A DNA stretch of 64,000 nt, taken from the NCBI GenBank assembly GCA_016218825.1, contig JACRCV010000075.1:166358-230357 (forward strand), read 5' to 3'. Below, piece by piece: positions 20,030 through 63,009 of this stretch (positions within the stretch are counted from its first letter, which is position 1; each line of letters opens with the position of its first letter). The notes below the pieces were generated by a model. The model was not told the origin of the DNA. It saw nothing but the letters and a program-made list of their open reading frames with translations, and made no database searches. The position numbers were made by a program, and so were the translations under genes. The stretch is from Deltaproteobacteria bacterium. GTDB taxonomy: Bacteria; Myxococcota; XYA12-FULL-58-9.

Positions 20030-20243
20030 TCCGACCGCGCCCGCAAGCTTTTCTCCGCCCCGACATCCGTGTCGCGCTCCCAAGCGCGCCGGGCAAACGA
20101 CCGTGCCACCGCCGGCCAACCGTGCCGCAGCACGCACCGAGAACCGGTCGAGAAAGACGCCTGAACGCCATGATAACCGTCATGTTTTCCGGCGCCACCT
20201 ATCAACGTTGCCGCAAACGTGCTACAGGCAGCCGTCCTTCGCG

Positions 20244-20266
20244 GCTGGGGCGTGTTTTTTGCACTT
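20244..20266 (+). promoter_or_regulatory. weak sigma54-like -24/-12 element (ctgGGgCgtgttttTTGCAc)
   Basis: GG at 20248-49 and GC at 20261-62 give the canonical 12-bp offset, with TTGCA at -12. It lies in the ~260-bp lower-GC gap before the priming transferase gene. The consensus match is only partial. Confidence 0.2.
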
Positions 20267-20289
20267 CGGCCGCGGGGGCGCTGATAAAG

Positions 20290-21690
20290 ATGTTGAGAAG
20301 GCACCACAGGTTCTTCCAATCGCTGCAGGTGTTGCGCGACGCCGTCCTCGTGGGCGTGAGCTTCTACCTCGCGTATCTCGGGCGGTTCTCGTTCCCGGGG
20401 CTGTTGCCGTTCGGCACCGTGACGCCGCGGCAGGAGGCCATCTGGGTCGGCTTGATGCTGATGATGGTGTGGCCGGCGATGGGTTGGATGGCCGGGCTGT
20501 ACGTGAGCCGGCGGTCGCGGGGGGTCGCGGCGGAGTTCTTCGACGTCTCGCGGACGTCGTTCATCGCGTTCATGGTGCTCGTGACGTTGGCCTACTTCAG
20601 CCGCGACGAGCGCTTTTCGCGCGGCATCCTGGTCTTGTGGGCGCTGTTGTCGGTGCTCGTCGTCGGGCTGGCTCGGGTGGCGAGCCGGGTGGCGCTGGGG
20701 TCGGTGCGCTCCCGGGGTTACAACCTCCGGCACGTGATCATCGTCGGCACCGGGGACCTGGCGCGGCGGGTCGCGAGCCTGATCCGGCAGCAAGGGTCGT
20801 TGGGGATGCGGGCGGTCGGCGTGGTGGCGCCGAACACCGAGCGCGCCAAGACCAAGATCGGAAACCTCCCTGTTTTTGGAAAGGTCAGCGACTTGCACCG
20901 CATCCTCGCCGAGCACGCGGTGGACCAGGTGATCGTGGCGCTGCCGATCGACAAGCTCGGGGCGTTGAAGGAGATCATGACCGTCTTGTCGCAGGAGCCG
21001 GTCGACGTGCGGGTGATCCCCGACTTCTACCAGTACATGACGCTGTGCGGCAGCGTCGAAGAGTTCGCCGGGCTGCCGATCATCAACCTGCAGGCGACGC
21101 CCCTCGTCGGCTGGAACCTGGTCGCGAAGCGGACCTTCGACATCGTGGTGACCGGCATCGGCCTGGTGTTGGTGACGCCGCTCGTCACGCTCACCGCGCT
21201 GTTCATCAAGCTCACGAGCCCCGGGCCGGTGTTCTACGTCCAGGAGCGGGTCGGGATGGACGGCCGCAAGTTCCAGATGTTCAAGCTCCGCACCATGCGG
21301 GTCAACGCCGAGGCCGACGGCGTGCAGATGACGAGCCCCGACGACCCGCGCCGCACCCGGCTCGGCTCGCTGTTGCGCCGCCTGTCGATCGACGAGCTGC
21401 CGCAGCTCTGGAACGTGATGAAGGGCGACATGAGCCTGGTGGGGCCGCGGCCGGAGCGCCCGTGCTTCATCGAGACCTTCAAGCGCGACATTCCGCGCTA
21501 CGCGTTGCGGCACAAGATCAAGGCCGGGATGACGGGTTGGGCGCAGGTGCACGGGATGCGCGGCGACACCAGCATCGCGAAGCGCATCGAGCTCGATCTG
21601 TACTACATCGAGAACTGGTCGCTGCTCCTCGACTTGCGCATCCTGTTCCGCACCGTGTTTGGAGGCTTCTTGTCCCCGAACGCCTACTAG
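20290..21690 (+). CDS. undecaprenyl-phosphate sugar phosphotransferase (WcaJ/EpsZ-like polyprenyl glycosylphosphotransferase)
   Basis: ATG 20290 after the lower-GC intergenic region. C-terminal bacterial sugar transferase domain (FDIVVTGIGLVLVTPL...GPVFYVQERVGMDGRKFQMFKLRTM...DELPQLWNVMKGDMSLVGPRP). Confidence 0.85.
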   Translation: MLRRHHRFFQSLQVLRDAVLVGVSFYLAYLGRFSFPGLLPFGTVTPRQEAIWVGLMLMMVWPAMGWMAGLYVSRRSRGVAAEFFDVSRTSFIAFMVLVTLAYFSRDERFSRGILVLWALLSVLVVGLARVASRVALGSVRSRGYNLRHVIIVGTGDLARRVASLIRQQGSLGMRAVGVVAPNTERAKTKIGNLPVFGKVSDLHRILAEHAVDQVIVALPIDKLGALKEIMTVLSQEPVDVRVIPDFYQYMTLCGSVEEFAGLPIINLQATPLVGWNLVAKRTFDIVVTGIGLVLVTPLVTLTALFIKLTSPGPVFYVQERVGMDGRKFQMFKLRTMRVNAEADGVQMTSPDDPRRTRLGSLLRRLSIDELPQLWNVMKGDMSLVGPRPERPCFIETFKRDIPRYALRHKIKAGMTGWAQVHGMRGDTSIAKRIELDLYYIENWSLLLDLRILFRTVFGGFLSPNAY

Positions 21691-23924: not shown

Positions 23925-23927
23925 CCC

Positions 23928-25385
23928 ATGATGGAGCGCGGCGACTACGAGCAGAAGCTCTGGCTCTTCGTTCTCGACATGGTCGCGTTCTTCGTGGCGC
24001 TGAACGGCGCCATCTACCTGCGCTACGGCTCGCTGTTGCCCTTTGCCAAGGGCGGCCCCGCTCCCTGGGAGCGGATCTTCGTGGCGTTTCCGTTCGTCGC
24101 CCTCGTCTGGCTGGTCGCCGGGGCGATGTTCGGCAGCTATCGGGCGCGGCAGAGCGCCTTCGAGGAGGTGGCGGCGGTGGTGCGCGCCACCTTGGTGGCG
24201 TTCCTCGCGGTCCTGAGCGTGACCTTCTTCTACCGCGGCTTCTCGTACTCCCGCGGCATGATCGGCTTTCTGATCCCGCTCGTGCTCCTGACCGTGATCG
24301 GCGGTCGGCTCCTGTTTCGCGCGGTGCGGCGGCGGGTGCTGCGGCGCTTCGGTGGGCGGCCGCGGGTCGCCATCCTCGGCAGGAGCAAGATCGGCAATAG
24401 CCTCTTGAAGGCGTTGTTGCGGGAGCGCGACTACTACGACGTCGTCGGGGTGGTGGCGACGACCGGGGTCTCCCCGATCACCCCGGACGCCGACGCCGAG
24501 GCGGCGGCGGAGCTGCCGCTGTTGGGCCACGTGCGCGACATCGAGGAGCTGTGCCGGAGCCAGAAGTTCGAGGCCCTGGTGCTCGTCGAGCGTCACCTGC
24601 CGGAGGACGTGGTGCTCGACTCGATCGAGGCCTGCCTGCGGCACCAGGTGAGCTGGAACATGATCCCGGCGGTGCACGAGCTGTTGCTCGATCGGGCCCG
24701 GGTCGATCTGGTGGACGGTATTCCGCTGGTCGGGATGCGGCGCAGCAACATCGTCGGCTTCAACTGGGCGGTCAAGCGCCTGTTCGACATCGCCCTGTCG
24801 CTGGCCTTGATCCTGCTGGCGTCGCCGCTGATGGCGGTGGTAGCACTCGCCATCAAGCTCAGCTCCAAGGGCCCGATCTTCTACGTACAACAGCGGATCG
24901 GCTACCACGGCCGGGCGTTCCCGTTCTACAAGTTCCGCTCGATGCACCGGAACAACGACGACGCCATCCACCGCGAGTACACCCGCAAGTGGATCATCGA
25001 GAACAAGGCGCACACCGAGGCCGGGGTGCGCAAGGTCCACAAGATCACCGACGATCCGCGGGTGTTCAAGGTCGGCAGGTTCATCCGCAAGTACTCCATC
25101 GACGAGCTGCCGCAGCTGTTCAACGTCCTCGGCGGCGAGATGAGCCTGATCGGGCCGCGGCCGGCGCTGCCCTACGAGGTCGAGGTCTATCGCGAGTGGC
25201 ATCGGCGGCGCTTCGAGGCGCCGCCGGGGATCACCGGGCTGTGGCAGGTGTCGGGGCGCAACCAGGTGTCGTTCGAGGAGATGGTGAAGCTCGACATCGA
25301 CTACCTCGAGAACTGGTCGCTGCTCTTGGACCTGCGCATCCTGGTGCGGACGGTGCGCGTCGTGCTCTTCGAGCACGCCTACTGA
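23928..25385 (+). CDS. second polyprenyl-phosphate sugar phosphotransferase (WbaP/PglC-like)
   Basis: Same C-terminal transferase domain as 20290 (KRLFDIALSLALILLASPLM...GPIFYVQQRIGYHGRAFPFYKFRSM...DELPQLFNVLGGEMSLIGPRP). Confidence 0.85.
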   Translation: MMERGDYEQKLWLFVLDMVAFFVALNGAIYLRYGSLLPFAKGGPAPWERIFVAFPFVALVWLVAGAMFGSYRARQSAFEEVAAVVRATLVAFLAVLSVTFFYRGFSYSRGMIGFLIPLVLLTVIGGRLLFRAVRRRVLRRFGGRPRVAILGRSKIGNSLLKALLRERDYYDVVGVVATTGVSPITPDADAEAAAELPLLGHVRDIEELCRSQKFEALVLVERHLPEDVVLDSIEACLRHQVSWNMIPAVHELLLDRARVDLVDGIPLVGMRRSNIVGFNWAVKRLFDIALSLALILLASPLMAVVALAIKLSSKGPIFYVQQRIGYHGRAFPFYKFRSMHRNNDDAIHREYTRKWIIENKAHTEAGVRKVHKITDDPRVFKVGRFIRKYSIDELPQLFNVLGGEMSLIGPRPALPYEVEVYREWHRRRFEAPPGITGLWQVSGRNQVSFEEMVKLDIDYLENWSLLLDLRILVRTVRVVLFEHAY

Positions 25386-30430: not shown

Positions 30431-30506
30431 GCCCCCGTAGCTCAGTTGGATAGAGCGCGGGATTCCTAATCCCGGTCTGCCACAGGTTCGACTCCTGTCG
30501 GGGGCG
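30431..30506 (+). tRNA. tRNA-Arg (anticodon CCT)
   Basis: GCCCCCG-TA-GCTC-AGTTGGATA-GAGC-G-CGGGA-TTCCTAA-TCCCG-...-GGTTCGACTCC-...-CGGGGGC-G, followed by an encoded CCA. Anticodon loop TT-CCT-AA. Coordinates ±1. Confidence 0.85.
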
Positions 30507-32124: not shown

Positions 32125-32290
32125 CGGCCACGACACCGGGCAATCGATTTCTCGCGTTCTTGATTCCCGGCGGGCGCTTCGCGCCCGTCCTCCCCACCCC
32201 CACCCCGGAGCGTCGCCTTCGGCGCCGCTCTCGGCCCGCCCCAGATTGGGGCGGGCAACATCGGCAAAGCCCGAGAGCTCGATCGCCCTG
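32125..32290. repeat. structured GC-rich repeat, copy B (subfamily 1, inverted relative to copy A), flanked by 9-bp direct repeat GGCCACGAC (32116-32124 and 32291-32299)
   Basis: The reverse complement is ~90% identical to copy A over ~150 bp, including terminus cagggcgatcgag, the hairpin, G-tract and cccgccgggaatca. Seen directly. Confidence 0.7.
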
Positions 32291-32311
32291 GGCCACGACG
32301 TCCTCCGCCGC

Positions 32312-40837: not shown

Positions 40838-41036
40838 CGATGTTGCCCGCCCCACCCGGTCGGGCACCGAGCAGCTGGCTTTGCCCGTGCGAGGTGCGGG
40901 GGCACGGGGGGACGCAGAGCCGGCGCGTCACTCCGTTGTCGCCCTCGGACCACGTGCCGGCGGGCGGTCCCCCCGCCAGGTTGCTGGGGCGCCAAGCGCC
41001 CGCCGGGAATCAAAGAAGCGAGAACCAGTCGATTGC
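40838..41036. repeat. structured GC-rich repeat, copy C (subfamily 1 variant with longer, divergent centre)
   Basis: Shares 5' cgatgttgcccgccccacccgg and 3' gcgcccgccgggaatcaaagaagcgagaaccagtcgattgc with copy A. Confidence 0.55.
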
Positions 41037-46498: not shown

Positions 46499-46600
46499 CC
46501 GCATGCATCACTTGATTCCCGCGCGGCCGCTGCGCCCGCGCTCCCCACCCCCACCCCCATCCCCCGCCCCCGGGTGGGGCGGGGGCGACGAACGCTGGAT
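46499..46600. repeat. structured GC-rich repeat, copy E (subfamily 2), flanked by perfect 14-bp direct repeat CGCGAAGCGTTAGG (46485-46498 and 46601-46614)
   Basis: Seen directly. The duplicated 14-mer contains the stop codons of both convergent flanking genes. Confidence 0.65.
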
Positions 46601-49432: not shown

Positions 49433-50412
49433 TGCGTAGCCTGGTCACCGCGTGTGCTGTTCTGCTGTCCGCGAGCGCCTGCGGCGAGCTGCCCGACCCG
49501 CCGCTCCCCGACGGCAACCCGGGCGGCCAACCGGCGGCCAACCCCGGCGACCCGCCGCCCCCCGAGGATCCGGCGCTCGATCCGAACGCGCCGCCGCCCG
49601 CGAGCCCGGCGCTCGCGGCGCTGCCGTCGCGTTACGGCTACGACACCATCCCGGTGCGCGGCACCGCGGCGCCGAACGAGACCGTGTTCGCCGAGGGCGG
49701 CAGCGCCCCGGTCGCGACCGACGCCGACGCCGGTGGTCGCTTCTGCCTGGACGTGCCGCTCGCGGCCAAGGCGACCCAGACCGTCGAGGTGTTCGTGCAG
49801 GACCAGCGCGGCGTCACCTCGTCGCCGGCCGCGGTGGTGATCGTGCAGGACCCGACTCTCGCGGTCAGCGAGTCGCCGCCGCGGCCGCAGGTCAACCTCG
49901 CGGCGCGCCTGCCGTTGTCGGCCGACGAGACCCCGAAGGCCGGGGTGTTCGCGAACCTGACCGACGAGGACACCACCTCCAGCGTCACGGTGCCGAGGGC
50001 GATCGTCTGGCTCGACTTCAGCGAGCTCGCCGACATCGAGAGCGTCGAGGTGGTGTTCAGCGACACGCTGACGACCGGCGACAACACCTTCGCGACCGAG
50101 TACCAGGTGCTGGTGAGCGACGTCGCGTCGCCGTCGATGCCGCCGGCGTGGGACAGCCCGGATTGGACGCTGCTCTACGACGTCTATCCCGGCTGCGGTT
50201 TGCCGGCGGGGGACGGCGGCTCGGATCTGTTCGGCCTCGAGACCCCGTGGACCGCCCGCTATGTGGCGTTCTCGTTCATCGAGAACAACAAGACCGACTG
50301 GCTGTCGTCCGAGGAGATCAAAGTGGCGGAGCTCCGCGTCCAAGGCCGCTCCGCCGTACCGCCGCCGCCCCAGCCGCAGACCCCGACCTGCGCCAACGGG
50401 AAGCAACCCTAA
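49432..50412 (+). CDS. lipoprotein with C-terminal F5/8 type C (discoidin)-like domain
   Basis: MRSLVTACAVLLSASAC is a lipobox, followed by a Pro-rich linker. C-terminal ...ARYVAFSFIENNKTDWLSSEEIKVAELRV is discoidin-like. Confidence 0.6.
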   Translation: MRSLVTACAVLLSASACGELPDPPLPDGNPGGQPAANPGDPPPPEDPALDPNAPPPASPALAALPSRYGYDTIPVRGTAAPNETVFAEGGSAPVATDADAGGRFCLDVPLAAKATQTVEVFVQDQRGVTSSPAAVVIVQDPTLAVSESPPRPQVNLAARLPLSADETPKAGVFANLTDEDTTSSVTVPRAIVWLDFSELADIESVEVVFSDTLTTGDNTFATEYQVLVSDVASPSMPPAWDSPDWTLLYDVYPGCGLPAGDGGSDLFGLETPWTARYVAFSFIENNKTDWLSSEEIKVAELRVQGRSAVPPPPQPQTPTCANGKQP

Positions 50413-50419
50413 GGTCAGA

Positions 50420-52192
50420 GTGCCGGTCTGCGTCTTACCCGCTCTAGCGCTCGCTCTCGCCTGGGTAGAGATCGGCGGCGGCCTGCCGGCCGGCGACGAC
50501 ATCACCGCGATGTCGTTCGGCAACGGCGCCGACGACATCCTGGTCGGCACCACCGCCGGCTACGTGTTCCGCACCCTGGACGGTGGTGAGACCTACCAGC
50601 CGATCTTCACGCCGCAAGACACCGAGCCGTTGGTCGAGCCGCGGCTCCACAACCTCGCGAGCGCGGCGGTGGACGACCTCGGTCGCGGTCACGATCGGAA
50701 TATGGATCCGCGGGACCGGGCCGGCAGCGTCAAGGCCGCGGCGAACCTCGCCGGCGAGGTGCGCGACAACCCGCAGATCCGCGCCACGCCGCTGCTCGCG
50801 TCGCTGGTCCGCGAGACCGCCCGCGAGCGCGCCGCGGTGACTCAGATCCAACGCTGCGCGCCCGCGACCTTTCTGCTCACGCCCGAGTCCCTGTGGCGGT
50901 CCACCGATGACGGCCTGCGCTTCGAGCAGCTCAACGTCGGTCCTTCGGGCTTGCGCTCGGCGATCTACTGGATCACCTGCGATCCGGCGCGCAAAGGCCA
51001 CGTGGCGCTGAACACCGCCGCCGGCGTCCTCGAGAGCTTCGACCTCGGCGAGACCTTCTTCATGTTCGGCAGCGCGTTTCCCGACGGCGCCAAGGTCGAC
51101 GGCATCGACTTCCGCGCCGACGGCCGGCTGGTGGTGACGGCGCAGGGGAGGGTGTTCGTCGAGCGCCAGGGGGGCGGCGGCTACGAGGCGGTCTGCAACT
51201 ATCGCCGGGGCGACAGCGTCGAGGGCAAGCTCGACTGGATCTGGTGGACCGAGGGGCGCGGCCGGCCGGTCTTGTACCTCGTGACCGGCGACGGCATCGT
51301 GGTGTGCGACGACGGCAAGCTCAAGCGCCTCGACCCGTTGGGCCTCGGGCGGGTCCAGGCGGAGTTCGTCTGGATCGACGACGCCGAGCCCGGCCACATC
51401 CTCGCGGCGACCAAGCACGAGGTCTACGAGAGCTTCGACGCCGGCGCGTCGTTCAAGCTGGCCTTCGTGGTCCCCACCGAGCGCTCGGTGCGCAAGCTCT
51501 TGATGGACGGCGGGCGCAAGGGGGATCTGCTGGTGGCGACCGGCGGCCAGATCTTTCGCCGGGTCCAGGACGACGATGGCGCCCGCAAGCGGGCGGTCGC
51601 CGGCCGCGAGGCCGCGGTGACCGAGCGGCTGATGAGCGAGGCGCCGTTGTGGCAGGTGTTGCAGACGGCGCTGGCGCGGATGGAGCTGGCGCCGGAGCGG
51701 GTCGCAGAGCGTCGGGTCGATTCGATGTTTCGCAACCTGATGCCGGACATCGCGGTGCGCGCCTCGTACGCGATGAGCGCGTCGCCCAGCCTGCGGACGC
51801 CGAGGTTCGACGCGGGCGCCGACCCGCGATTTCCGCAGTCCGGCGCGCCCGACGACTTCTCCGCCTTTGCCCGGACCCGCGGCGGCGCTGCCTATTGGAG
51901 CGTGGTGGCCGTCTGGGATCTCAGGGAGATCATCGCCGACCGCTATACCTCCGACCGACTCTGGGCCGACGTCGAGCGCCTGCGACAGAAGATGACGTTT
52001 CGGGTGCAAGACGAGTGGGTGGCCTGGGGTCAGGCGTCGGTGAAGCTCAGCCAGGCCGGCCTGTCGCGCCGCGCGCGGCTGTTCCACGAGTTGAAGCGGC
52101 GGGAAGCGGCGGCGATCCTCAACCAGATGACCGGCGGCGGGTTCGCGGTCTTCGCGACCGACGGCGCCGGGCGCACGCGCGCCAGGGAGTAG
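50420..52192 (+). CDS. BNR/Asp-box repeat secreted protein (Ycf48/sialidase-like beta-propeller)
   Basis: Repeats TTAGYVFRTLDGGETY, SLWRSTDDGLRF, and YESFDAGASF. GTG start assumed at 50420. Confidence 0.6.
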   Translation: MPVCVLPALALALAWVEIGGGLPAGDDITAMSFGNGADDILVGTTAGYVFRTLDGGETYQPIFTPQDTEPLVEPRLHNLASAAVDDLGRGHDRNMDPRDRAGSVKAAANLAGEVRDNPQIRATPLLASLVRETARERAAVTQIQRCAPATFLLTPESLWRSTDDGLRFEQLNVGPSGLRSAIYWITCDPARKGHVALNTAAGVLESFDLGETFFMFGSAFPDGAKVDGIDFRADGRLVVTAQGRVFVERQGGGGYEAVCNYRRGDSVEGKLDWIWWTEGRGRPVLYLVTGDGIVVCDDGKLKRLDPLGLGRVQAEFVWIDDAEPGHILAATKHEVYESFDAGASFKLAFVVPTERSVRKLLMDGGRKGDLLVATGGQIFRRVQDDDGARKRAVAGREAAVTERLMSEAPLWQVLQTALARMELAPERVAERRVDSMFRNLMPDIAVRASYAMSASPSLRTPRFDAGADPRFPQSGAPDDFSAFARTRGGAAYWSVVAVWDLREIIADRYTSDRLWADVERLRQKMTFRVQDEWVAWGQASVKLSQAGLSRRARLFHELKRREAAAILNQMTGGGFAVFATDGAGRTRARE

Positions 52193-52823: not shown

Positions 52824-54518
52824 ATGGCGCAGGCGTTCGCGACCATCATCGAGGCGTTCCTGGCGCACGCGCGGGCGCGGCCGGAGGCGTCGTTCGCGAC
52901 CTTCATCGGCAGCAGCCCGCCGGACGTGACCTGGACCTTCGGGCAGGCGCTGGAGCAGGCGCGACGCGCCGCCGGGGGTCTGGTCGCCGAAGGGCTCGGC
53001 GCAGGCGATCGGGTGGTGATCGTCGGCGGCAACGAGCCCGCGGTCGCCGCGGTGCTGCTCGGGGCGATGGGGCGCGGCATGGTCCCGGCGGTCGTCCACC
53101 CGCCGATCCGGGCCGAGGCCAAGGCGGCGGCGACCTACCTCGAGAACATCGTCGTCAAGGCCGAGCCGGCGTTGGTGGTGGTGGCGTCGGCGGAGATTGC
53201 CGCGAGCGTCGGCGGTGGACGGCGGCTTCGCACCGCGGCGGAGCTGCTCACGAGCGCGGCGCCGCCCGTCGAGCTGCAGCCGCCCGCGGAATCGGCTCCG
53301 GCCTATATCCAGTTCTCGTCCGGCAGCACCGGCGCCGCCAAGGCGGTGCTGCTGTGCGCCGGCGCGCAGGCGCAAAACGCCTACGCCACCGGGGTCGAGA
53401 TCCGGGCGCAAGACGACGAGACCTGGGTCATCTGGTTGCCGCTCTACCACGACATGGGGTTGATGTCGGGCCTGCTCATCCCGTTGTTCCTGGGGCACCG
53501 CACCGTGCTGCTCGCCCCGGAGCGCTTCGTCGAGCGGCCGGTGGCCTGGCTGCAGGCGATCGACCTGCACCGCGGCACGCTCACCGTGGCGCCGAACTTC
53601 GCCTACGCGCTGGTCGCCAGGCGCGCGAGCCCGGAGCGCCTGGCCGGCCTCGACTTGTCGTGCCTGCGGGTGGCGTTCAACGGCGCCGAGATGGTGCTCG
53701 CCGACACCGTGGCGCGCTTCGAGGCGGCGCTGGCGCCGGTGGGGTTGCGACCGGACACGGTGTTCCCGGTGTACGGCCTCGCCGAGTTCACGCTGAGCGC
53801 CTGCTACTGGGACGTCGGCAGGCCGATCCTCGTGGACCACGTCGCCCGGGGCGATCTGGCCCGGGGCTACGCGGCGCCGGCGCTCGAGAATGATCGCCGT
53901 GCGACGAGCTTCGTCAGCGTCGGCCACCCGGTCGCCGGACATCGGCTGCGGGTCGTCGACGATCGGGGTCAGGAGTGCCAGGAGCGCGAGGTGGGGGAGA
54001 TCCAGCTCGCGGGGCGGTCGCGGATGCTCGGCTACGTGGGCGATCCGGCGCTGAGCGCGGCGACGATGGCGGGCGAGTGGTTGCTGACCGGAGACCTCGG
54101 CTACGTCGCGGCCGGTCAGGTGTTCGTCTGCGGCCGCAAGAAGGACCTGGTGATCCGCTTCGGCGAGAACTTCTACCCCGCGGATCTCGAGAGCGTCGCG
54201 GCGACCGCGCCGGGGGTGCGCGCCGGCAGGCTCGCGGTGCTCGGGGTCGCCGACTTGCGGCTCGCGACCGAGAGGGTGTGGTTGGTGATCGAGGCCGAGC
54301 TTGAGCCCGCCGCCGCCTACGAGCTCGCGGCCGCGGTGCGCGCCTTCGTCCTCGAGGCCGCCGGCTTCAAGTTCGACGGCATAAGCGTCGTGCCGCCGGG
54401 CTTCATCGACAAGACCTCGAGCGGCAAGGTGCGGCGCTACGCGGTGCGCGACAAGCTGCTCGTCCTCTTCGGCCGCGGCACGCCGCCGCCGTCGGTGGGA
54501 CGGTTCCCCGAGCCGTGA
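52824..54518 (+). CDS. fatty-acyl-AMP ligase (FAAL-type AMP-binding enzyme)
   Basis: YIQFSSGSTGAAK is the AMP-binding motif I. FAAL-like YGLAEFT, GEWLLTGDLGYV, and GRKKDLVI. Confidence 0.85.
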   Translation: MAQAFATIIEAFLAHARARPEASFATFIGSSPPDVTWTFGQALEQARRAAGGLVAEGLGAGDRVVIVGGNEPAVAAVLLGAMGRGMVPAVVHPPIRAEAKAAATYLENIVVKAEPALVVVASAEIAASVGGGRRLRTAAELLTSAAPPVELQPPAESAPAYIQFSSGSTGAAKAVLLCAGAQAQNAYATGVEIRAQDDETWVIWLPLYHDMGLMSGLLIPLFLGHRTVLLAPERFVERPVAWLQAIDLHRGTLTVAPNFAYALVARRASPERLAGLDLSCLRVAFNGAEMVLADTVARFEAALAPVGLRPDTVFPVYGLAEFTLSACYWDVGRPILVDHVARGDLARGYAAPALENDRRATSFVSVGHPVAGHRLRVVDDRGQECQEREVGEIQLAGRSRMLGYVGDPALSAATMAGEWLLTGDLGYVAAGQVFVCGRKKDLVIRFGENFYPADLESVAATAPGVRAGRLAVLGVADLRLATERVWLVIEAELEPAAAYELAAAVRAFVLEAAGFKFDGISVVPPGFIDKTSSGKVRRYAVRDKLLVLFGRGTPPPSVGRFPEP

Positions 54519-55502: not shown

Positions 55503-55508
55503 CGGCGG

Positions 55509-55552
55509 CGGGGCGGGCAACATCGGTCCAACTCGAGAGCTCGATCGCCTTG
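55509..55552. repeat. repeat fragment, copy D (44-bp 5'-terminal piece of subfamily 1, inverted; possible internally deleted element 55487-55552)
   Basis: The reverse complement caaggcgatcgagctctcgagttggaccgatgttgcccgcccc matches the first 44 bp of copy A with one mismatch. Confidence 0.6.
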
Positions 55553-55619
55553 GGCGGTGGGAAGGATCGACTTGCCGGGTCGGCGCCTGCTTGCTACACC
55601 CCGATGCGGAGGAGCGGCG

Positions 55620-58019
55620 ATGCCTCGGTCGACGACGATCGGCGTGGCCGTCCTGCTCCTGGCGCTGATTGGCTGCCAGGACAGCGGCGGCTGCGGCACC
55701 GACTACAACTATCCGCGCACCGATCCGGCGGCGGCGCCGAGCTTGCGGGCGCTGCGGCTGCGCGTCACCCAGACCGGGCTCGACTCGATCGCGCGCGCCT
55801 TCCCCGGCCTCGTCGCCAGCGCCTGCGCCGCGAATGTCGACGACGGCACCGCCCCCTGCGCGCTCCTGGCGCCCGGCTCCGACCGGGTGAAGTTCTACCT
55901 CGGCACGACCGCCGCGCCCCTCGCCTTCGACTTGTCGCTCACCCGTGGCCAGGTGCGGCCGCAAAGCACCGTGACCATCGACACCCAGAGCCTGCGCGGC
56001 AACGTGCACCTGAGCCTGGTGAACGTCGTCGGCGGCCGCGACGGCATCCAGGTGACGCTCGGCTGCAACGCGCCAAACTTCGCCAGCTGCACCAACCCCA
56101 GCGCCTTCGTCGACGCCGCGGTCGACATGGTGGTGTTCGTCGAGGGCTTCTCGCTCTTGGTGACGAGCTACAACGACAGCGCCTGCTTCGTGCAGGACGA
56201 CGCGCCGCCGGCGCCCGGGATCGTCATCCAACAGCTGCGCTTCACGATCTATCCGCACGTCGACGCCGGCGCCGACGGCAAGCCGTACCTGATCCTCGAC
56301 GATCAGGACGTGATCGTCGATCGCATGGAGGTGAGCCTCGACGTCCAGGCCGGCAGGGCGTGCTGGGACCCGGTGTGCAACGCCTGCGGCGCGGGCGGCG
56401 ACTGCGACCTGTGCGATGACCTGAGCGTCCTGACCTCGTACGTCATCGAGCCGCTCATCGAGACCGGCCCGGTCGCGAAGTATCTGTCGGCGGTGATCGC
56501 GAGGCAGCTGGTGAAGAAGTTCGCGGACCAGCCGCTCGAGGTGACCGGCGCCATCAACGTCGGCGAGCGCCTGAACGTCGCGAACAACGCCGCCCACGAC
56601 ACCGGCTACCTGATCGGCGCCAACGTCGATTCTCCCGACGTCACCGGGGGGGCGGGCGACCTGGGGATGAACTTCGACTTCGACACCGGCTTCGCGGCGC
56701 GCCACAGCCCGTGCGTGCCGGCCCTGGAGCCGCCGGCGTGGCTGTTGCCGGCGACCCCGGACCCGGGCGGGACGGTGATGGCGCCGGATCCGACGACCGG
56801 GGTGCTGCGGCCCGAGCCTTTTGACCTGGCGCTGATCGCCGGTGACGTGGTCGCGAACCGCGCGACCTTCGAGCTCTTCGACGCCGGCAGCTTCTGCTTC
56901 CACCTCCAGGCCGAGGAGGTCGCCGGCCTGTCGAACGGCAGCTTCGTGCCGACCGTCGGCGCGGTCAGCGTGGTCGCGCCCGGGTTGGCGTCCCTCGCCC
57001 CCGTGGACGCGCCGGTCACCCTCGGCACGCAGCCGTACATGCCGACCTTCGTGAGCTTCGGCACCGGCGACGGCGAGGGCCCGGCCCGCGACAGTCACCT
57101 GCGCGTCGTCTGGCCGCAGTTCACCCTCGAGATCATGCCGCTGGTCGACGACGCCTTCATCCGCGCCTTGGCGATGACCAGCGACTTCGAGATCGGCTTG
57201 AGCCTGGAGCCGACGCCGACCGGCGATCTGCAGATCATGATCGACAACATCGCGCTCAACAACCTCTCGGCCTCGTACAACGAGATCCCGATCCAGTTCG
57301 ACGTCGACGGCGTCGGGCGCCTGGTCGAGGCGTTGGTGCCGCGCCTCTTGAACGGCGATCCCTTCAACGTCCCGCTCACCGCGACGACGCTCGGGTTCCC
57401 GTTCGTGCCCAAGGTGCGGGCGGTGACCGCGCTCGATCTGCAGAAGCGCTTCCTCGGGGTCTTCATCCGCTTCTGCTCCGACGAGGACCTCCACGACGCC
57501 GCGAACCCCCTGTGCTTCGACCCGGCGGCCGGTGCCGGGCGCGCGCCGAGCGCCAGGCGTCTCGAGCTGCAGCGGCTGCCCCTCGGCAGCCCGGGCCGCG
57601 CCGACGCCGTCGGCGTCCGCGCGCTCGCCAACGCCTGGGATCCGGCGGCGCTGCAGATCGCCTACCGGGTCGACGGCAAGGGGCCGTTCTTCGGGTTTCG
57701 GGGGCCGCGCGCCGACGGCGTGTTCGTCGTCACGCATCCGGCACTGGCGGCGCCCGGCTGGCACGAGATCGAGGCGATCGGCCGATCGCGGCAGCTGAAG
57801 AATCAATGGACCGAGCCGACGACCCTCGCGGTCCTCGTGGACGACGCCTCGACCCCATCGCCCCCGGCGGTGGCGCCGAGCGTCGCCGCCCCGGTCCCGT
57901 CGTCGCCGCCGTACGGCGACGGTTGCCGGGCGGTGCCGACGGGGGGGCTCTGCCTCGTTCTGTTGGCGTCGCTGTGGACCTTCGCCGGCGCTCGACAAAG
58001 CGCCCGGCATCGTCGATAA
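55620..58019 (+). CDS. large lipoprotein of unknown function with C-terminal MYXO-CTERM sorting signal
   Basis: ATG 55620 with GGAGGAG Shine-Dalgarno. MPRSTTIGVAVLLLALIGC is a lipobox. C-terminal ...GCRAVPTGGLCLVLLASLWTFAGARQSARHRR follows the MYXO-CTERM pattern. Confidence 0.75.
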   Translation: MPRSTTIGVAVLLLALIGCQDSGGCGTDYNYPRTDPAAAPSLRALRLRVTQTGLDSIARAFPGLVASACAANVDDGTAPCALLAPGSDRVKFYLGTTAAPLAFDLSLTRGQVRPQSTVTIDTQSLRGNVHLSLVNVVGGRDGIQVTLGCNAPNFASCTNPSAFVDAAVDMVVFVEGFSLLVTSYNDSACFVQDDAPPAPGIVIQQLRFTIYPHVDAGADGKPYLILDDQDVIVDRMEVSLDVQAGRACWDPVCNACGAGGDCDLCDDLSVLTSYVIEPLIETGPVAKYLSAVIARQLVKKFADQPLEVTGAINVGERLNVANNAAHDTGYLIGANVDSPDVTGGAGDLGMNFDFDTGFAARHSPCVPALEPPAWLLPATPDPGGTVMAPDPTTGVLRPEPFDLALIAGDVVANRATFELFDAGSFCFHLQAEEVAGLSNGSFVPTVGAVSVVAPGLASLAPVDAPVTLGTQPYMPTFVSFGTGDGEGPARDSHLRVVWPQFTLEIMPLVDDAFIRALAMTSDFEIGLSLEPTPTGDLQIMIDNIALNNLSASYNEIPIQFDVDGVGRLVEALVPRLLNGDPFNVPLTATTLGFPFVPKVRAVTALDLQKRFLGVFIRFCSDEDLHDAANPLCFDPAAGAGRAPSARRLELQRLPLGSPGRADAVGVRALANAWDPAALQIAYRVDGKGPFFGFRGPRADGVFVVTHPALAAPGWHEIEAIGRSRQLKNQWTEPTTLAVLVDDASTPSPPAVAPSVAAPVPSSPPYGDGCRAVPTGGLCLVLLASLWTFAGARQSARHRR

Positions 58020-58027
58020 CTCCCATC

Positions 58028-60313
58028 ATGCCCCGGCTCTCGCGGATCCCACGGCCGACGATGCGCGGCCGCCGCTGGCGACACCTGCGCCTGGTGTTGG
58101 TCCTGCTGCCGCAGGTCGCCTGCAGCGGGCAGACCGGGTGCCTGGGCTGCGGCGGCTCCTATGACTACCCGAGCCCGCCGCCGGCCGCCGGGGAGATCCA
58201 GAACAACACCCTGCTCGGACACGTGCAGCAGAGCGGCGTGCTCTTCGTGGCGCGCCACCTCGCCGATGTCCTGCGGGCGCGGCTCCCGACCCGGACCGTC
58301 GGCGGCATCGAGCGCGCCACCTTCTACCTGCCGGAGACCACCTACAGGTCGACGCTCGCCGACGTGACCCTCCGTGACGGCTGCATCGGACCGACGCCCA
58401 TCGAACAGTGCCCCAACCTCAACCCCGACGACGGCGACACCACGCGCGGGCCGACCTATCGCTCGATGATCGAGCTGAACCTCGACACCATCGACGACAC
58501 CATCGACGCCACCTTCATCCCCGGCTCCGGGTCGACGCCCGACGGGGTGCGCATCAGCCTCTACAACGTCGACGTCTTCATGGATCTGGCGATCCTGGCG
58601 CAGGGGCTCGCGGTGCCGGGCGACGCCGCCTGCCACATCCAGGACAAGTACAACGACCGCGCCGCGTTCCACCTCGAGCGGTTGCGCTTCACGGTGACGC
58701 TCGCGGTCGACGCCCAGAGCCGTTTTCAGGGCGACGTCGTCGACGTCGAGGTGCTGATCGACCGCGACTCGTTCATCAACAGCGACATGTTGAGCCTCGA
58801 CGTCTCGCCGTGCAACGGCGGCGTCTGCAACGATCCGACCTGCCACGACTCGTGGCTCAACTGGGACTGCAGCGTGAACTGCGCGGTCGGCGGCTTCGTC
58901 TTCGGCGCCGCGGACTTCCTCGCCGGCGTCCTCGAGCCGCTCATCGAGTGGATCGCCCCCTCGGTGGTCGAGCTGGCGATGGGCATGGCCCTCGACCAGG
59001 TGAACGGCCAGCCGCTGATGATGTCGGGGCGCTACGGCTTCGACGAGATCTTCGGCGCCAACGGGCGCCTGGCGCCGCTGCTCATGGACCCCACCGCGAT
59101 CAGCTTCGGCGCCTGGCCGAACGACGACGCCTTCGTGGTCAGCGGGCCGATCGACGCCCGCGGCATGCGGCTGGCGCTCGACGCCGGCACCTTCGCCGAC
59201 CCGAGCCAGTGCGCGCCGATGGTGGTACTGCCGCGGTTCGCGGCGCAGCTCGGCCCACCGCCGTTCTTCGACGGCACCTTGCAGGTGAACGGTCACACCG
59301 AGGCCTACGACTTCGCGGTGTCGGTGTCGGAGGCGTTCGCGGCGCAGGCGGCCTTCAGCGCCTACACGCTCGGGGGCATGTGCCTGTTCCTGTCCACCGA
59401 CGAGCTCGCACGCCTGTCGAACGGCGCGGTCAGCCTCGCGACCTTGGCGCTCTTGGTGCCGTCGCTCGTCGACTGGGCGAGCCCGCACGCCCCGGTGATG
59501 TTCATCGTCCATCCGACGGCGGCGCCCAAGGTCCGCTTCGGCACCGGGGCGACCACCGGCCACGATCCGGACGGCGCGCCGATCATCGACTCGCTGTTGC
59601 AGATCGACTTCGGCGAGATGGGCGTCTCGATCTACACCCTGGTGGACGACGAGCTCACCCGCCTGGCGACGGTGGCGGCGGACGTGAAGCTCGGGGCGCC
59701 GCTCAACCGCACGCCGCAGAACACCATCGAGATCGGCATCGACAAGCTCGAGGTCGCGAACGTCGTCGAGGTCTACGACGAGTTGTTGCCGGCGTCCGAC
59801 TGGGGCTCGCTGTTGGAGGTGCTGTTGAACGTCGCGATCGGCGCGATGATCGACGGCATGGGGAGCTTCAACCTCGACCTGGCGCCGATCGTGTCGCGCA
59901 TGCTCGGCGGCGCGCCGGTCTACGCCCGCATCAACGCGGTGGAGCGGGCCGGCGCCGATGTCGACAAGGGCTTCGTCGTCGCCTACCTGACCCTGTGTGA
60001 CGCCGCGGATCTGACGAACCCGGCGAAGCCGCCGTGCTACACCGCGCCGATCCCGACGGCGCTCGGCGCGGTGCGCCTCGTCGGCGCGGCTCGCGGCGCG
60101 GTGCGCTTCGCGGTCGAGCGGACGCGGGAGTACCAGGTGCGGGTGGACGGCGGCGCCTGGACCGGGTTCCGGGGCGCCGTGGACGGCGAGGTCCGATTCG
60201 GGTCGCCGCTGTTGCGTCTCCCCGGGGACCATCAGGTCGAGCTGCGCGGGCGCAGCGTCGGCCGCTACCAGACCCTCGGCCCGGCGACGGCGTTTGCGGT
60301 CCCTGTCGATTGA
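58028..60313 (+). CDS. large lipoprotein, tandem paralog of 55620..58019 (no MYXO-CTERM)
   Basis: Shared blocks: GCG.SY.YP, LRFT..L.VDA, .C..L...E.A.LSNG. Signal ...MRGRRWRHLRLVLVLLPQVAC. An alternative start is at 58061. Confidence 0.75.
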   Translation: MPRLSRIPRPTMRGRRWRHLRLVLVLLPQVACSGQTGCLGCGGSYDYPSPPPAAGEIQNNTLLGHVQQSGVLFVARHLADVLRARLPTRTVGGIERATFYLPETTYRSTLADVTLRDGCIGPTPIEQCPNLNPDDGDTTRGPTYRSMIELNLDTIDDTIDATFIPGSGSTPDGVRISLYNVDVFMDLAILAQGLAVPGDAACHIQDKYNDRAAFHLERLRFTVTLAVDAQSRFQGDVVDVEVLIDRDSFINSDMLSLDVSPCNGGVCNDPTCHDSWLNWDCSVNCAVGGFVFGAADFLAGVLEPLIEWIAPSVVELAMGMALDQVNGQPLMMSGRYGFDEIFGANGRLAPLLMDPTAISFGAWPNDDAFVVSGPIDARGMRLALDAGTFADPSQCAPMVVLPRFAAQLGPPPFFDGTLQVNGHTEAYDFAVSVSEAFAAQAAFSAYTLGGMCLFLSTDELARLSNGAVSLATLALLVPSLVDWASPHAPVMFIVHPTAAPKVRFGTGATTGHDPDGAPIIDSLLQIDFGEMGVSIYTLVDDELTRLATVAADVKLGAPLNRTPQNTIEIGIDKLEVANVVEVYDELLPASDWGSLLEVLLNVAIGAMIDGMGSFNLDLAPIVSRMLGGAPVYARINAVERAGADVDKGFVVAYLTLCDAADLTNPAKPPCYTAPIPTALGAVRLVGAARGAVRFAVERTREYQVRVDGGAWTGFRGAVDGEVRFGSPLLRLPGDHQVELRGRSVGRYQTLGPATAFAVPVD

Positions 60314-60369: not shown

Positions 60370-61323
60370 ATGAACATGTCACGCTTGCTCGCTGTCGCCG
60401 CCGTTGTCGCCGCGCTCTCGGGCGGGGCGTGTGGGGGCTCGCCGCCGCCGCCGCCGGTCGTCGCCTCGAAGCCGGAGCAGACCGTCAAGGCGGTGCCGCC
60501 GCCCAAGATCGCGTTGGTGCTCGGGGGCGGCGGGGCGCGGGGCTTCGCGCACGTCGGCGTGCTGCGGGCGCTCGAGCACGAGAAGATCCCGTTGTCGCTC
60601 GTGGTCGGCACCTCGGTCGGCAGCCTGATCGGCGCGCTCTACGCCGCCGACCCGAACACCTTCGAGCTGGAGTGGAAGTCCTTCAAGATCGAAAAGGACG
60701 ACCTCTTCGACTTCTCGTTGTTCGCCGCCACCACCGGCCCGGTGAAGGGGGACGCGGTGCGCAAGTTCGTGGCCGAGAACGTCAAGGAGCAGCAGATCGA
60801 GCGCTTCAAGGTGCCCTACGTCGCGGTCGCCGCCGACCTCAACACCGGCGAGCGGGTCCTCTTCAAGTCCGGGAGCATCGTCGACGCGGTGCGCGCCTCG
60901 GTGTCGATCCCCGGCGTCTTCACCCCGGTGCGCATCGGCAACCGGACGCTGGTCGACGGCGGCGTGGTCGCCAACCTCGCGATCGACGTCGCCCGCGACC
61001 AAGGCGCCGACATCGTGATCGCCTCGAACATCACCCAGCGGGTCGTGGACTACGAGGTCAACGACGTGGTGTCGATCATCATGCAGTCGATCAACATCAT
61101 GATGGGGGAGATGGCCAAGTTTCAGCAGAAGGCGGCCGACGTCGTCATCACCCCCGACATCGGTGACGTCGGGACCATGGACTTCACGCAGAAGAAGCGC
61201 TGCATGCAGGCCGGGATCGCCGCGGTCGAGGCCGAGCGGGGCGCGATCAGCGCGGCCATCCGCAAGTACTACACCGATCGGGGCGGGGAGCCGCCGGCGG
61301 GCGGCCTGCCGTCCATTCGGTGA
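60370..61323 (+). CDS. patatin-like phospholipase lipoprotein
   Basis: MNMSRLLAVAAVVAALSGGAC is a lipobox. Patatin motifs GGGARG...GTSVGS (GxSxG) and catalytic DGG. Confidence 0.85.
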   Translation: MNMSRLLAVAAVVAALSGGACGGSPPPPPVVASKPEQTVKAVPPPKIALVLGGGGARGFAHVGVLRALEHEKIPLSLVVGTSVGSLIGALYAADPNTFELEWKSFKIEKDDLFDFSLFAATTGPVKGDAVRKFVAENVKEQQIERFKVPYVAVAADLNTGERVLFKSGSIVDAVRASVSIPGVFTPVRIGNRTLVDGGVVANLAIDVARDQGADIVIASNITQRVVDYEVNDVVSIIMQSINIMMGEMAKFQQKAADVVITPDIGDVGTMDFTQKKRCMQAGIAAVEAERGAISAAIRKYYTDRGGEPPAGGLPSIR

Positions 61324-61368: not shown

Positions 61369-63009
61369 ATGAAGCTCACCCCCTGGTCAAGGCGATCGAG
61401 TTCTCGAGTTGGACCGATGTTGCCCGCCCCACCCGGGGGCGGGCCGAGAGCGGCGCCGCAGGCGACGCTCCGGGGTGGGGGTGGGGAGGACGGGCGCGAA
61501 GCGCCCGCCGGGAATCAAAGAAGCGAGAGCGCGATTGCCCTGACCCCCTGGTGCCGGCTCCTTGCCATCGTTGCGCTGTCGATCGGCGGCTGTGCCCGCG
61601 AGCTCCCGGGCGACACGCCGCCGGGCAAGGCGTTCTACTACCCGGTCAGCGTCACGGTGGCGCCGAACGGCCTCCATGCCTACGTCGTCAGCTCGAACTT
61701 CGACCTGCACTACAGCTCGGGCTGGGTCTCGGTCGTGAGCCTCGAGAGCCTCTTGGACGGCTTGCCCATCGAGACCACGGTGGTCTCCGAGGCGAAGGTG
61801 CTGTCGCTCGCGGGCGGGCTGAGCCTGTCGCGAAGCGGCACGATGGCGGTCACCGCGCACCGCGGCGCCGCGGCGCTGTCGCTGCTCGAGATCGGTGACG
61901 ACGGCAAGACGATCGGCTGCGGCGTCCAGGGCGACACCACGGATCTCAGCTACAAGGAGCGGCTCACCGACTGCGATCGCGCCCACATGCTGCAGACCGC
62001 GTGCACCGCGCCGCAGCTCGAGGACGCCGATCGGCCCGCCGGCTGTCCCTGGGAGCAAGACGGCGGACGTCGGGTGTTCGGGACGTCGCTCAACGATCTC
62101 GAGCTCGCCGACCCGTTCGCGACCGCGATCTTCGAGGTGCCGGCGGCGAGCGGCGGCACCGAGCCGTTGCTCGCGGTTTCCCACTTGACCAGTGGCGACC
62201 CGTCCGTCGGCCAGACCAACCAGCTGCTGCTCTTCGACGTCGAGTCCGGCACGACGGCGGGCGAGTCGGTCGTCTTGGCGCCGCGGCACGCGGTGCGGCT
62301 GGGAGGTGGCGGCAACCTGGGTGTCGCCGCGCTCGCGGTGCGCTCCGACGCTGCCGGCACGTTCCTCGCCGCTGCCACCCAAAAGGCCTTCACCGGCGAG
62401 TCGCAGGATCCGAGCGCGGTCTACGTCGTCGACGTGACCAGGACGCTTTCCGACCAGCAGGACCGGGTGTCATCCCATTCAATCAATGCCGAGGTCGGCG
62501 GTGTGAACCTGGCCGGGATCACCTTCGCCGCGAACAACCCCGACCTGGCGTTCGTGACCAACCGTATTCCCGACAGCGTCGTGACCTTGGACACGTCGAT
62601 CGAGACCGTCGACGAGCGCGACTCGCTCGGGACCGTGACGGTCGCGCGTCGGCCGCGCTTCGCGGTGCTCTCGGCGCAGGCCTTGCAGCCGCGTCCGGCG
62701 GGGCTGCTCTACGTCACCCGGGCGGCGGGGGAGGATCTGCTGGCGGTCGCGAGCTTCGCCGACAACGTGGTCTACCTGTTCTCGGTGCATGGGAGCGAGC
62801 TGCGCCCGACCGGGCGCCTGCCGGTGCCGGGGTACGGCCCGTTCGCTCTCGCGCACGTCGCCCGCGACGGCAGCGACTTCCTGCTGGTGACGACGTTCTT
62901 CACCCATGCGCTGGTGGTCTTCGACGTCACCGGCGACGACGCCGCGCGGTTCCGGTACGTGACCGAGCTCCGGTCGGGCGTGCCGCCGGCCGGCGATCCG
63001 GCGCGGTAG
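61369..63009 (+). CDS. YVTN-type beta-propeller lipoprotein whose signal-peptide coding region carries an in-frame repeat insertion
   Basis: ORF track. Codons 1-6 read MKLTPW. The 152-bp element plus duplication (165 bp, in frame) follows, then ...LTPWCRLLAIVALSIGGC lipobox. Downstream are YVTN-like 40-residue repeats. Confidence 0.6.
   Translation: MKLTPWSRRSSSRVGPMLPAPPGGGPRAAPQATLRGGGGEDGREAPAGNQRSESAIALTPWCRLLAIVALSIGGCARELPGDTPPGKAFYYPVSVTVAPNGLHAYVVSSNFDLHYSSGWVSVVSLESLLDGLPIETTVVSEAKVLSLAGGLSLSRSGTMAVTAHRGAAALSLLEIGDDGKTIGCGVQGDTTDLSYKERLTDCDRAHMLQTACTAPQLEDADRPAGCPWEQDGGRRVFGTSLNDLELADPFATAIFEVPAASGGTEPLLAVSHLTSGDPSVGQTNQLLLFDVESGTTAGESVVLAPRHAVRLGGGGNLGVAALAVRSDAAGTFLAAATQKAFTGESQDPSAVYVVDVTRTLSDQQDRVSSHSINAEVGGVNLAGITFAANNPDLAFVTNRIPDSVVTLDTSIETVDERDSLGTVTVARRPRFAVLSAQALQPRPAGLLYVTRAAGEDLLAVASFADNVVYLFSVHGSELRPTGRLPVPGYGPFALAHVARDGSDFLLVTTFFTHALVVFDVTGDDAARFRYVTELRSGVPPAGDPAR
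61388..61539. repeat. structured GC-rich repeat, copy A (subfamily 1, reference copy), flanked by 13-bp direct repeats ctCaccccctggt (61375-61387) and ctGaccccctggt (61540-61552)
   Basis: Termini caaggcgatcgag ... gcgcgattgcc form imperfect terminal inverted repeats (GGCRATCG). Hairpin gcccgcccc-acccg-ggggcgggc. G-tract ggggtgggggtggggagg at 61473-61490. Confidence 0.75.

Follow-up and report, generated by a model that had tools for sequence, protein, structure and literature searches.

Two tandem proteins of a Myxococcota family with a predicted BPI/CETP-like double-TULIP fold, only the first of which carries a MYXO-CTERM-type tail

We examined two adjacent genes, P1 and P2, within a 64-kb stretch of DNA (the window; G+C ~70%) from contig JACRCV010000075.1, which belongs to a metagenome-assembled genome (MAG) recorded at NCBI as 'Deltaproteobacteria bacterium'. 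Structure prediction places both products in the TULIP superfamily, as BPI/CETP-like pseudo-dimers in which two tubular barrels are followed by a basic fibronectin type III (FN3)-like sandwich. Because of this BPI-like fold, and because of the precedent of the Bdellovibrio protein TipA (compared below), we favor the reading that P1 and P2 bind or transfer lipids in the cell envelope, perhaps working in relay with each other and with neighboring lipoproteins, and we put its probability at roughly 55%.

The initial annotation of this region described the pair as proteins of unknown fold without a Pfam-type signature. The latter half of that description holds, as neither protein matched any Pfam-A or NCBIfam model at E<=1. 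The predicted structures, by comparison, were informative. For P2, AlphaFold2 modeling on 106 sequences gave a predicted local distance difference test score (pLDDT) of 91.3 and a predicted template modeling score (pTM) of 0.88; for P1, where 11 sequences were used, the pLDDT is 71 and the pTM 0.72. In both models a unit consisting of a strand, a long helix, a long twisted sheet and a second long helix occurs twice and is followed by a beta-sandwich. The two units are modeled as tandem barrels joined at a central sheet, each with a long helix lying in a strongly twisted antiparallel sheet, which is the arrangement of a double TULIP. When submitted to Foldseek, both models matched BPI, CETP and LBP along with other TULIP proteins; for P2 the match to BPI had an E-value of 5e-16, and LBP, CETP, OrfX1-OrfX3, P47 and OrfX2 were also found. 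Sequence identity in the structural alignments to BPI, LBP and CETP is 10-13%, and the TULIP tube accounts for ~85% of each protein. Because these are structural matches to a well-known family, the very outcome named beforehand as decisive against an unknown fold, that part of the description is refuted. The barrels are acidic (isoelectric point (pI) 4.2-4.5) and have a positive grand average of hydropathy (GRAVY, 0.06-0.36 per barrel), which argues against a BPI-style cationic lipopolysaccharide binder; the FN3-like domains are basic (pI 9.7-11). The features assigned to the two genes are as follows.

55620..58019, + strand: P1 gene, 799 residues from an ATG start; product predicted to be a BPI/CETP-like double TULIP that has a signal of lipoprotein type and a MYXO-CTERM-type tail
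55620..55676, + strand: P1 signal peptide and lipobox (..LLLALIG-C19), passing a PROSITE PS51257-type rule
55689..55715, + strand: conserved N-terminal motif GCGxxYxYP of P1 (residues 24-32), 5 residues past the lipobox Cys
55737..56534, + strand: predicted N-terminal TULIP barrel of P1 (residues ~40-305), including a Cys-rich loop at residues 248-265
56535..57554, + strand: C-terminal TULIP barrel of P1 (residues ~306-645), from the AlphaFold2 model
57555..57845, + strand: predicted FN3/Ig-like beta-sandwich of P1 (residues ~646-742), basic, pI 9.7
57846..57920, + strand: Pro/Ala/Ser-rich linker of P1 (residues 743-767), pLDDT <50
57921..58016, + strand: MYXO-CTERM-type tail of P1 (G-C769, hydrophobic helix, R..RHRR), read from the sequence
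58061..60313, + strand: P2 gene, 750 residues, with an alternative ATG at 58028; predicted tail-less double-TULIP paralog
58193..59005, + strand: N-terminal TULIP barrel of P2 (residues ~45-315), from the AlphaFold2 model
59006..60040, + strand: C-terminal TULIP barrel of P2 (residues ~316-660), from the AlphaFold2 model
60053..60310, + strand: predicted FN3/Ig-like sandwich of P2 (residues ~665-750), basic, pI 11.0, at the protein end

At the level of sequence, the relationship to known TULIPs is nearly invisible. The Pfam families classed as TULIPs include LBP_BPI_CETP, LBP_BPI_CETP_C, DUF1439 and DUF2140 (PMC6791001). PF01273 and PF02886, which represent BPI, LBP and CETP, did not match P1 or P2 even at E<=1, and each was found in just one of 57 relatives, below threshold (E 0.015 and 0.056, respectively). 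A search of the family profile against the sequences of the PDB returned chance matches only, and an hhalign comparison of the N-barrel with the C-barrel profile detected no internal repeat (probability 1.4%).

P1 and P2 are ancient paralogs. BLASTP aligned them in a single co-linear match over nearly their full length (27% identity, E 4e-41) that takes in every block the initial annotation had listed as shared by the tandem genes, namely GCGxxYxYP, LRFT..VDA, C.L...E.A.LSNG and the Cys-rich segment. The genes lie on the same strand, separated by 8-41 nt depending on which P2 start is used, and a promoter and terminator scan gave no signal above background. Word-indexed homolog searches yielded just 4, 7 and 9 proteins, and an exhaustive HMMER search was needed to reveal the family. 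With an 11-sequence profile as the query and sequences clustered at 50% identity, this search recovered 1020 cluster representatives at E<=1e-3, of which 230 reached E<=1e-30. Wherever an organism name is given, for near and distant relatives alike, it is 'Myxococcota bacterium' (MAGs), and a scan of genome contigs found only two loci, both from MAGs. The family is thus of Myxococcota origin. Where product names are given, they are 'hypothetical protein' or 'MYXO-CTERM domain-containing protein', the latter from JGI. The family also includes a subfamily of 1200-1560 residues (P0065, P0067, P0090, P0092, P0098, P0104, P0108 and others), in which an N-terminal double-TULIP is joined to 500-800 extra residues. 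These proteins do not have the Cys/helix/Arg tail described below, their C-terminal ends resemble one another, and a Pfam scan of seven of them left the extra regions unmatched.

Most N-termini of the family are of the kind expected for exported lipoproteins. The initial annotation had called both gene products lipoproteins, and for P1 the sequence supports this, as its lipobox (ALIG-C19) passes the PROSITE-type rule; the case of P2 is weighed further below. The Cys aligned with C19 of P1 is nearly invariant across the family, the rule is passed by 106 of the 140 near-full-length family representatives, and most of the top 150 representatives have a lipoprotein-type N-terminus followed by the GC-rich motif. 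Within this motif, C25, Y31 and P32 of P1 are invariant in the 11-sequence alignment. Besides the lipobox Cys, family members contain 6-8 conserved Cys, which fits an oxidizing, extracytoplasmic location.

The two paralogs part ways at their C-termini. The end of P1, GC(769)RAVPTGGLCLVLLASLWTFAGARQSARHRR, combines a Cys motif with a ~17-residue hydrophobic helix and a cluster of basic residues. All three parts of a MYXO-CTERM signal can be recognized here (GC769, GGLCLVLLASLWTFAGA and RQSARHRR), and the same tripartite tail is present in all orthologs of the P1 clade, whose alignment shows an additional insert of ~70-80 residues before the tail. P2 ends in ...AVPVD immediately after the last beta-sandwich and has no tail. 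We refer to the P1 tail as MYXO-CTERM-type because of its architecture and positional homology, not because of a model score. Among the relatives, the curated cut-offs of TIGR03901 (MYXO-CTERM) or TIGR03382 (GC_trans_RRR) are reached at the homologous position by P0070 (27.0 bits) and by P0081 (20.1 and 16.4 bits), 7 of 57 family members match MYXO-CTERM-type models at E<=0.1, and most of the top 150 representatives close with G-C-[AST] followed by a hydrophobic helix and RRRR. In a neighbor-joining tree built on 537 well-occupied columns, P1 is found in a tail-bearing clade, while P2 is situated in a monophyletic clade of which all 10 members are tail-less, with nearly all other clades being tailed. 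We conclude that the tail is ancestral, with a single loss in the P2 lineage. The earlier observation that only the first paralog carries the tail is borne out, and judging from these sequences the difference in sorting signal between P1-type and P2-type proteins is old and conserved.

What this difference would mean for the location of the proteins can be considered by analogy. According to a model that has experimental support, MYXO-CTERM proteins are exported by Sec and retained by the C-terminal helix, after which the invariant Cys is lipidated, the protein is cleaved by the myxosortase MrtX and the type II secretion system delivers it to the surface; TraA without its tag is released into the medium (PMC11980579). 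By analogy with TraA, it is plausible that P1 is surface-anchored and P2 released (PMC11980579), or P2 may instead be retained in the periplasm as a lipoprotein. The initial annotation had likened such a pair, one paralog anchored at the surface and the other released for attachment, to two-partner or adhesin systems. The differential sorting signal is indeed real and conserved, many MYXO-CTERM proteins are adhesins (PMC11980579), and an FN3-like domain is present in both P1 and P2. Nevertheless, we consider an adhesin pair very improbable. Neither the sequences nor the predicted folds, which are TULIP plus FN3, bear any likeness to TpsA/TpsB. There is no two-partner secretion (TPS) domain, POTRA/Omp85 partner, beta-helix or repeat architecture, the Pfam and NCBIfam scans were empty, most of each protein is tube, and P1 and P2 are paralogs of each other rather than a cargo and its transporter.

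The genes around P1 and P2 provide a further line of evidence. The following features lie downstream of the pair in the window.

60370..61323, + strand: patatin-like phospholipase with a lipoprotein-type signal (Pfam PF01734, E 2e-35)
61417..63009, + strand: ~470-residue lipoprotein (..SIGG-C-ARELPG..) without a Pfam match; it shares 32% identity (E 6e-58) with the neighbor in L002
63026..64000, + strand: ~750-residue lipoprotein, start only, continuing past the window; 38% identity (E 3e-38, tblastn) to L002:13670-15919

The conserved downstream order is P1-type gene, P2-type gene, patatin (when present), ~470-residue lipoprotein, ~750-residue lipoprotein and the rpsP-KH-rimM-trmD-rplS operon, and upstream of the P1-type gene it includes a PD-(D/E)XK nuclease and either a FadB-like or a fatty-acyl-AMP ligase (FAAL) gene. 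This order was found in the window, a JGI contig and loci L002, L003, L005 and L008; in L004, whose contig begins just upstream of P2, the order matches from P2 downstream. When loci with just one of the two TULIP genes are counted as well, the series of TULIP gene or genes, ~470-residue lipoprotein, ~750-residue lipoprotein and rpsP was seen in 8 loci. The patatin gene lies between P2 and the next lipoprotein gene in four of nine loci (the window, the JGI contig, L003 and L008) and is absent from the other five (L001, L002, L004, L005 and L007). The ~470-residue lipoprotein, by comparison, follows the TULIP gene or genes in every examined locus that reaches that far, and the ~750-residue lipoprotein precedes the rpsP operon in the related loci that do so. 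Because the patatin is variable and the two lipoproteins are recurrent, the lipoproteins are the constant partners, and we regard them as candidate functional partners of the TULIP genes. Neither belongs to a Pfam or NCBIfam family, and against PDB sequences they gave only a very weak match, to a YVTN beta-propeller S-layer protein. The possibility that the ~750-residue protein is a third paralog was tested and rejected. The start codon of the ~470-residue lipoprotein is uncertain, as the ATG at 61417 falls within a repeat element described below.

In the window, the gene directly upstream of P1 (54567-55502) is of the PD-(D/E)XK nuclease family and is syntenic in most related loci. It is preceded by a fatty-acyl-AMP ligase-like gene (52824-54518) that scores below the cut-offs of both the long-chain-fatty-acid--CoA ligase and the FAAL NCBIfam models; in related loci a FadB-like 3HCDH/ECH fusion occupies the position of the ligase. 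Overall, the genomic settings look housekeeping rather than accessory.

This bears on the question of whether P1 and P2 could be factors for predation or competition, in which surface or released BPI-like tubes bind and destabilize the outer membranes of prey and extract their lipids, a role proposed for TipA, with the patatin acting on the same target. BPI permeabilizes Gram-negative envelopes, and many Myxococcota are predators. In addition, TipA binds and destabilizes bilayers and is secreted into prey (bioRxiv 10.1101/2025.09.09.675085), MYXO-CTERM proteins include predation hydrolases (PMC11980579), and a patatin follows P2 in some loci. We nonetheless consider this explanation unlikely, because the barrels are acidic, unlike cationic BPI, the synteny is with housekeeping genes (rpsP-rimM-trmD-rplS, or an RNase D-like gene and folE) rather than with accessory or toxin islands, most family members are predicted to be anchored rather than secreted, and the patatin is missing from more than half of the loci compared.

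The nature of the cargo raises another alternative, namely that the tubes carry a hydrophobic small molecule other than a phospholipid, such as a carotenoid, an isoprenoid, a signal or a secondary metabolite. TULIP proteins such as Takeout, JHBP and the beta-carotene-binding protein serve as models for carriers of this kind. Here, however, the best full-length structural matches are two-barrel carriers of phospholipids or neutral lipids, and in the loci compared the genes are not accompanied by any conserved biosynthetic cluster for a ligand of this kind, which makes a small-molecule carrier decidedly unlikely.

If P1 and P2 do bind or transfer envelope lipids, the process could run as follows. 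Sec would export both proteins, and P1 would be acylated at Cys19. Its C-terminal helix would hold it in the inner membrane, Cys769 would be lipidated, a myxosortase would cleave, and the type II secretion system would take it to the cell surface, as has been shown for TraA. Surface P1 would then have an N-terminal lipid beside the first barrel and a C-terminal lipid on the Pro-rich linker of ~25 residues, while P2, being tail-less, would be a periplasmic lipoprotein or would be released. The two acidic hydrophobic tubes would load phospholipid-like or other hydrophobic cargo and hand it over between a membrane and a partner. The two conserved lipoproteins encoded downstream might join P1 and P2 in a heteromeric relay, and in some lineages the patatin phospholipase might supply or process cargo.

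Several observations weigh against lipid binding or transfer as set out here, or against parts of it. The fold is known from predicted models, of which that of P1 is only moderate (pLDDT 71), and a lipid-holding hydrophobic lumen in the barrels is assumed from these models. The P1 tail was not matched by the MYXO-CTERM models (TIGR03901 and TIGR03382) even at E<=10. The N-terminus of P2 (..LLPQVAC; PQVA-C21) fails the PROSITE-type lipobox rule, having Q at -3 and P at -4; the Cys aligned with C21 is a canonical lipobox Cys in the relatives P0007, P0008, P0011, P0012 and P0017. Furthermore, the pair is not obligatory, as a P1-type gene stands alone in L001 and a P2-type gene in L007, and distant members of the family are solitary, with an RNase D-like gene on one side and the GTP cyclohydrolase I gene folE on the other. 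Finally, the neighboring lipid enzymes (FAAL, FadB and patatin) differ among loci.

A more elaborate version of the lipid-transfer proposal is that P1, P2 and the two downstream lipoproteins together make up a dedicated Myxococcota envelope lipid-relay machine, with P2 in the periplasm and P1 at the surface, held by lipid at both ends. We regard this as speculative and rather improbable. If it were true, the two double TULIPs would form a heteromeric tube or relay carrying lipids across the outer membrane or out of it. This would make the machine a bacterial equivalent of ERMES/CETP-type TULIP bridges, with possible relevance to outer-membrane lipid supply, outer-membrane exchange and the uptake of prey lipids.

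A few other observations were made in the window. A modular GC-rich repeat occurs at 55507-55561, 61379-61433, 32160-32293, 40838-40859, 40987-41023, 46532-46583 and 849-894, and these sites appear to be intergenic in a loose check against stop-to-stop open reading frames (ORFs). Its parts are a conserved AAGGCGATCGAGCTCTCGAG..CCGATGTT block, a GCCCGCCCC/GGGGCGGGC hairpin, a GGGGTGGGGGTGGGGAG tract, a second hairpin and GGGAATCAAAGAAGCGAGA. The copies at 55507-55561 and 61379-61433 form an inverted pair (55 nt, 89% complementary) that flanks P1, P2 and the patatin gene. We considered whether this pair marks the boundaries of a mobile cassette, and rejected this because partial copies are found at at least four other sites in the window and because the block is syntenic in genomes that do not have the repeat. 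The repeat was not found in related loci and has no match in Rfam, and it is probably a genome-specific element resembling repetitive extragenic palindromes or miniature inverted-repeat transposable elements (REP/MITE-like). At the gathering threshold, the sole Rfam match in the window is a tRNA at 30431-30506. Upstream, an ORF at 50261-52192 has weak BNR/Asp-box and sortilin-Vps10 matches and, below threshold, one to the F510_1955 family glycosylhydrolase, a pattern that suggests a beta-propeller protein. The ORFs at 20005-21690 and 23925-25385 have near-identical terminal ...YIENWSLLLDLRIL... motifs; we take this motif to be typical of bacterial sugar transferases, in which case the middle of the window may hold a cluster for polysaccharide biosynthesis.

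How do P1 and P2 compare with known systems? BPI, LBP and CETP, the eukaryotic double-TULIP lipid carriers (PF01273 plus PF02886), have the two-barrel fold that P1 and P2 are predicted to share. However, there is no significant sequence similarity, and P1 and P2 are ~300 residues longer, adding a Cys-rich loop, an FN3-like domain and lipid-anchor signals to barrels that are acidic rather than cationic. Among bacterial proteins, envelope TULIPs include DUF4403 (a predicted full-length BPI homolog), YceB/DUF1439 and DUF2140, which are often lipoproteins or N-terminally anchored (PMC6791001); the 57 family members give 0 (at E<=0.1), 1 and 1 matches to these models, respectively, the latter two sub-threshold. 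The OrfX1, OrfX2, OrfX3 and P47 proteins of Clostridium botulinum neurotoxin clusters are Gram-positive, toxin-associated and without lipid anchors, and the structural similarity of P1 and P2 to them is far weaker than to BPI. P1 has in common with MYXO-CTERM/myxosortase substrates such as TraA (PMC11980579) an N-terminal signal, a C-terminal Cys/transmembrane helix/Arg cluster and, judging by the names of its relatives, a probable origin in Myxococcota; its tail, however, is sub-threshold and contains a single Cys, and it also has an N-terminal lipobox. The domain types listed for 35 M. xanthus MYXO-CTERM substrates include no TULIP or BPI (PMC11980579), and among the papers that our literature search listed, none mentions both Myxococcus and TULIP.

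By analogy, the closest functional precedent is TipA of Bdellovibrio bacteriovorus. This BPI-like double TULIP is filled with lipid and binds bilayers, and a beta-sandwich protein encoded in the operon opens it; other double-TULIPs in the AlphaFold database are fused to beta-sandwiches or to second double-TULIPs (bioRxiv 10.1101/2025.09.09.675085). Compared here by description, TipA of the TipA/TipB system is secreted as a soluble homodimer and its C2-like adapter is a separate protein, whereas in P1 and P2 the predicted sandwich is fused and FN3-like, the neighbor is a second double-TULIP paralog, and there are N-terminal membrane-anchor signals, to which P1 adds a C-terminal one. Outside the Proteobacteria models, how lipids reach the outer membrane and move beyond it is poorly understood, and bacterial double-TULIPs have only recently been characterized, in one protein (TipA). 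At minimum, the present analysis offers a fold-based annotation for proteins now called 'hypothetical protein' or 'MYXO-CTERM domain-containing protein'. If the proteins are lipid carriers, they would provide a handle on how myxobacteria manage their surface lipids and would represent a new class of passenger for the myxosortase pathway. That bacteria have double-TULIPs is in itself not new (PMC6791001; bioRxiv 10.1101/2025.09.09.675085). What is new here is a large family, without a curated model, that joins a predicted tube, a lipobox, an FN3-like domain and a MYXO-CTERM-type anchor, and that includes a conserved tail-less paralog.

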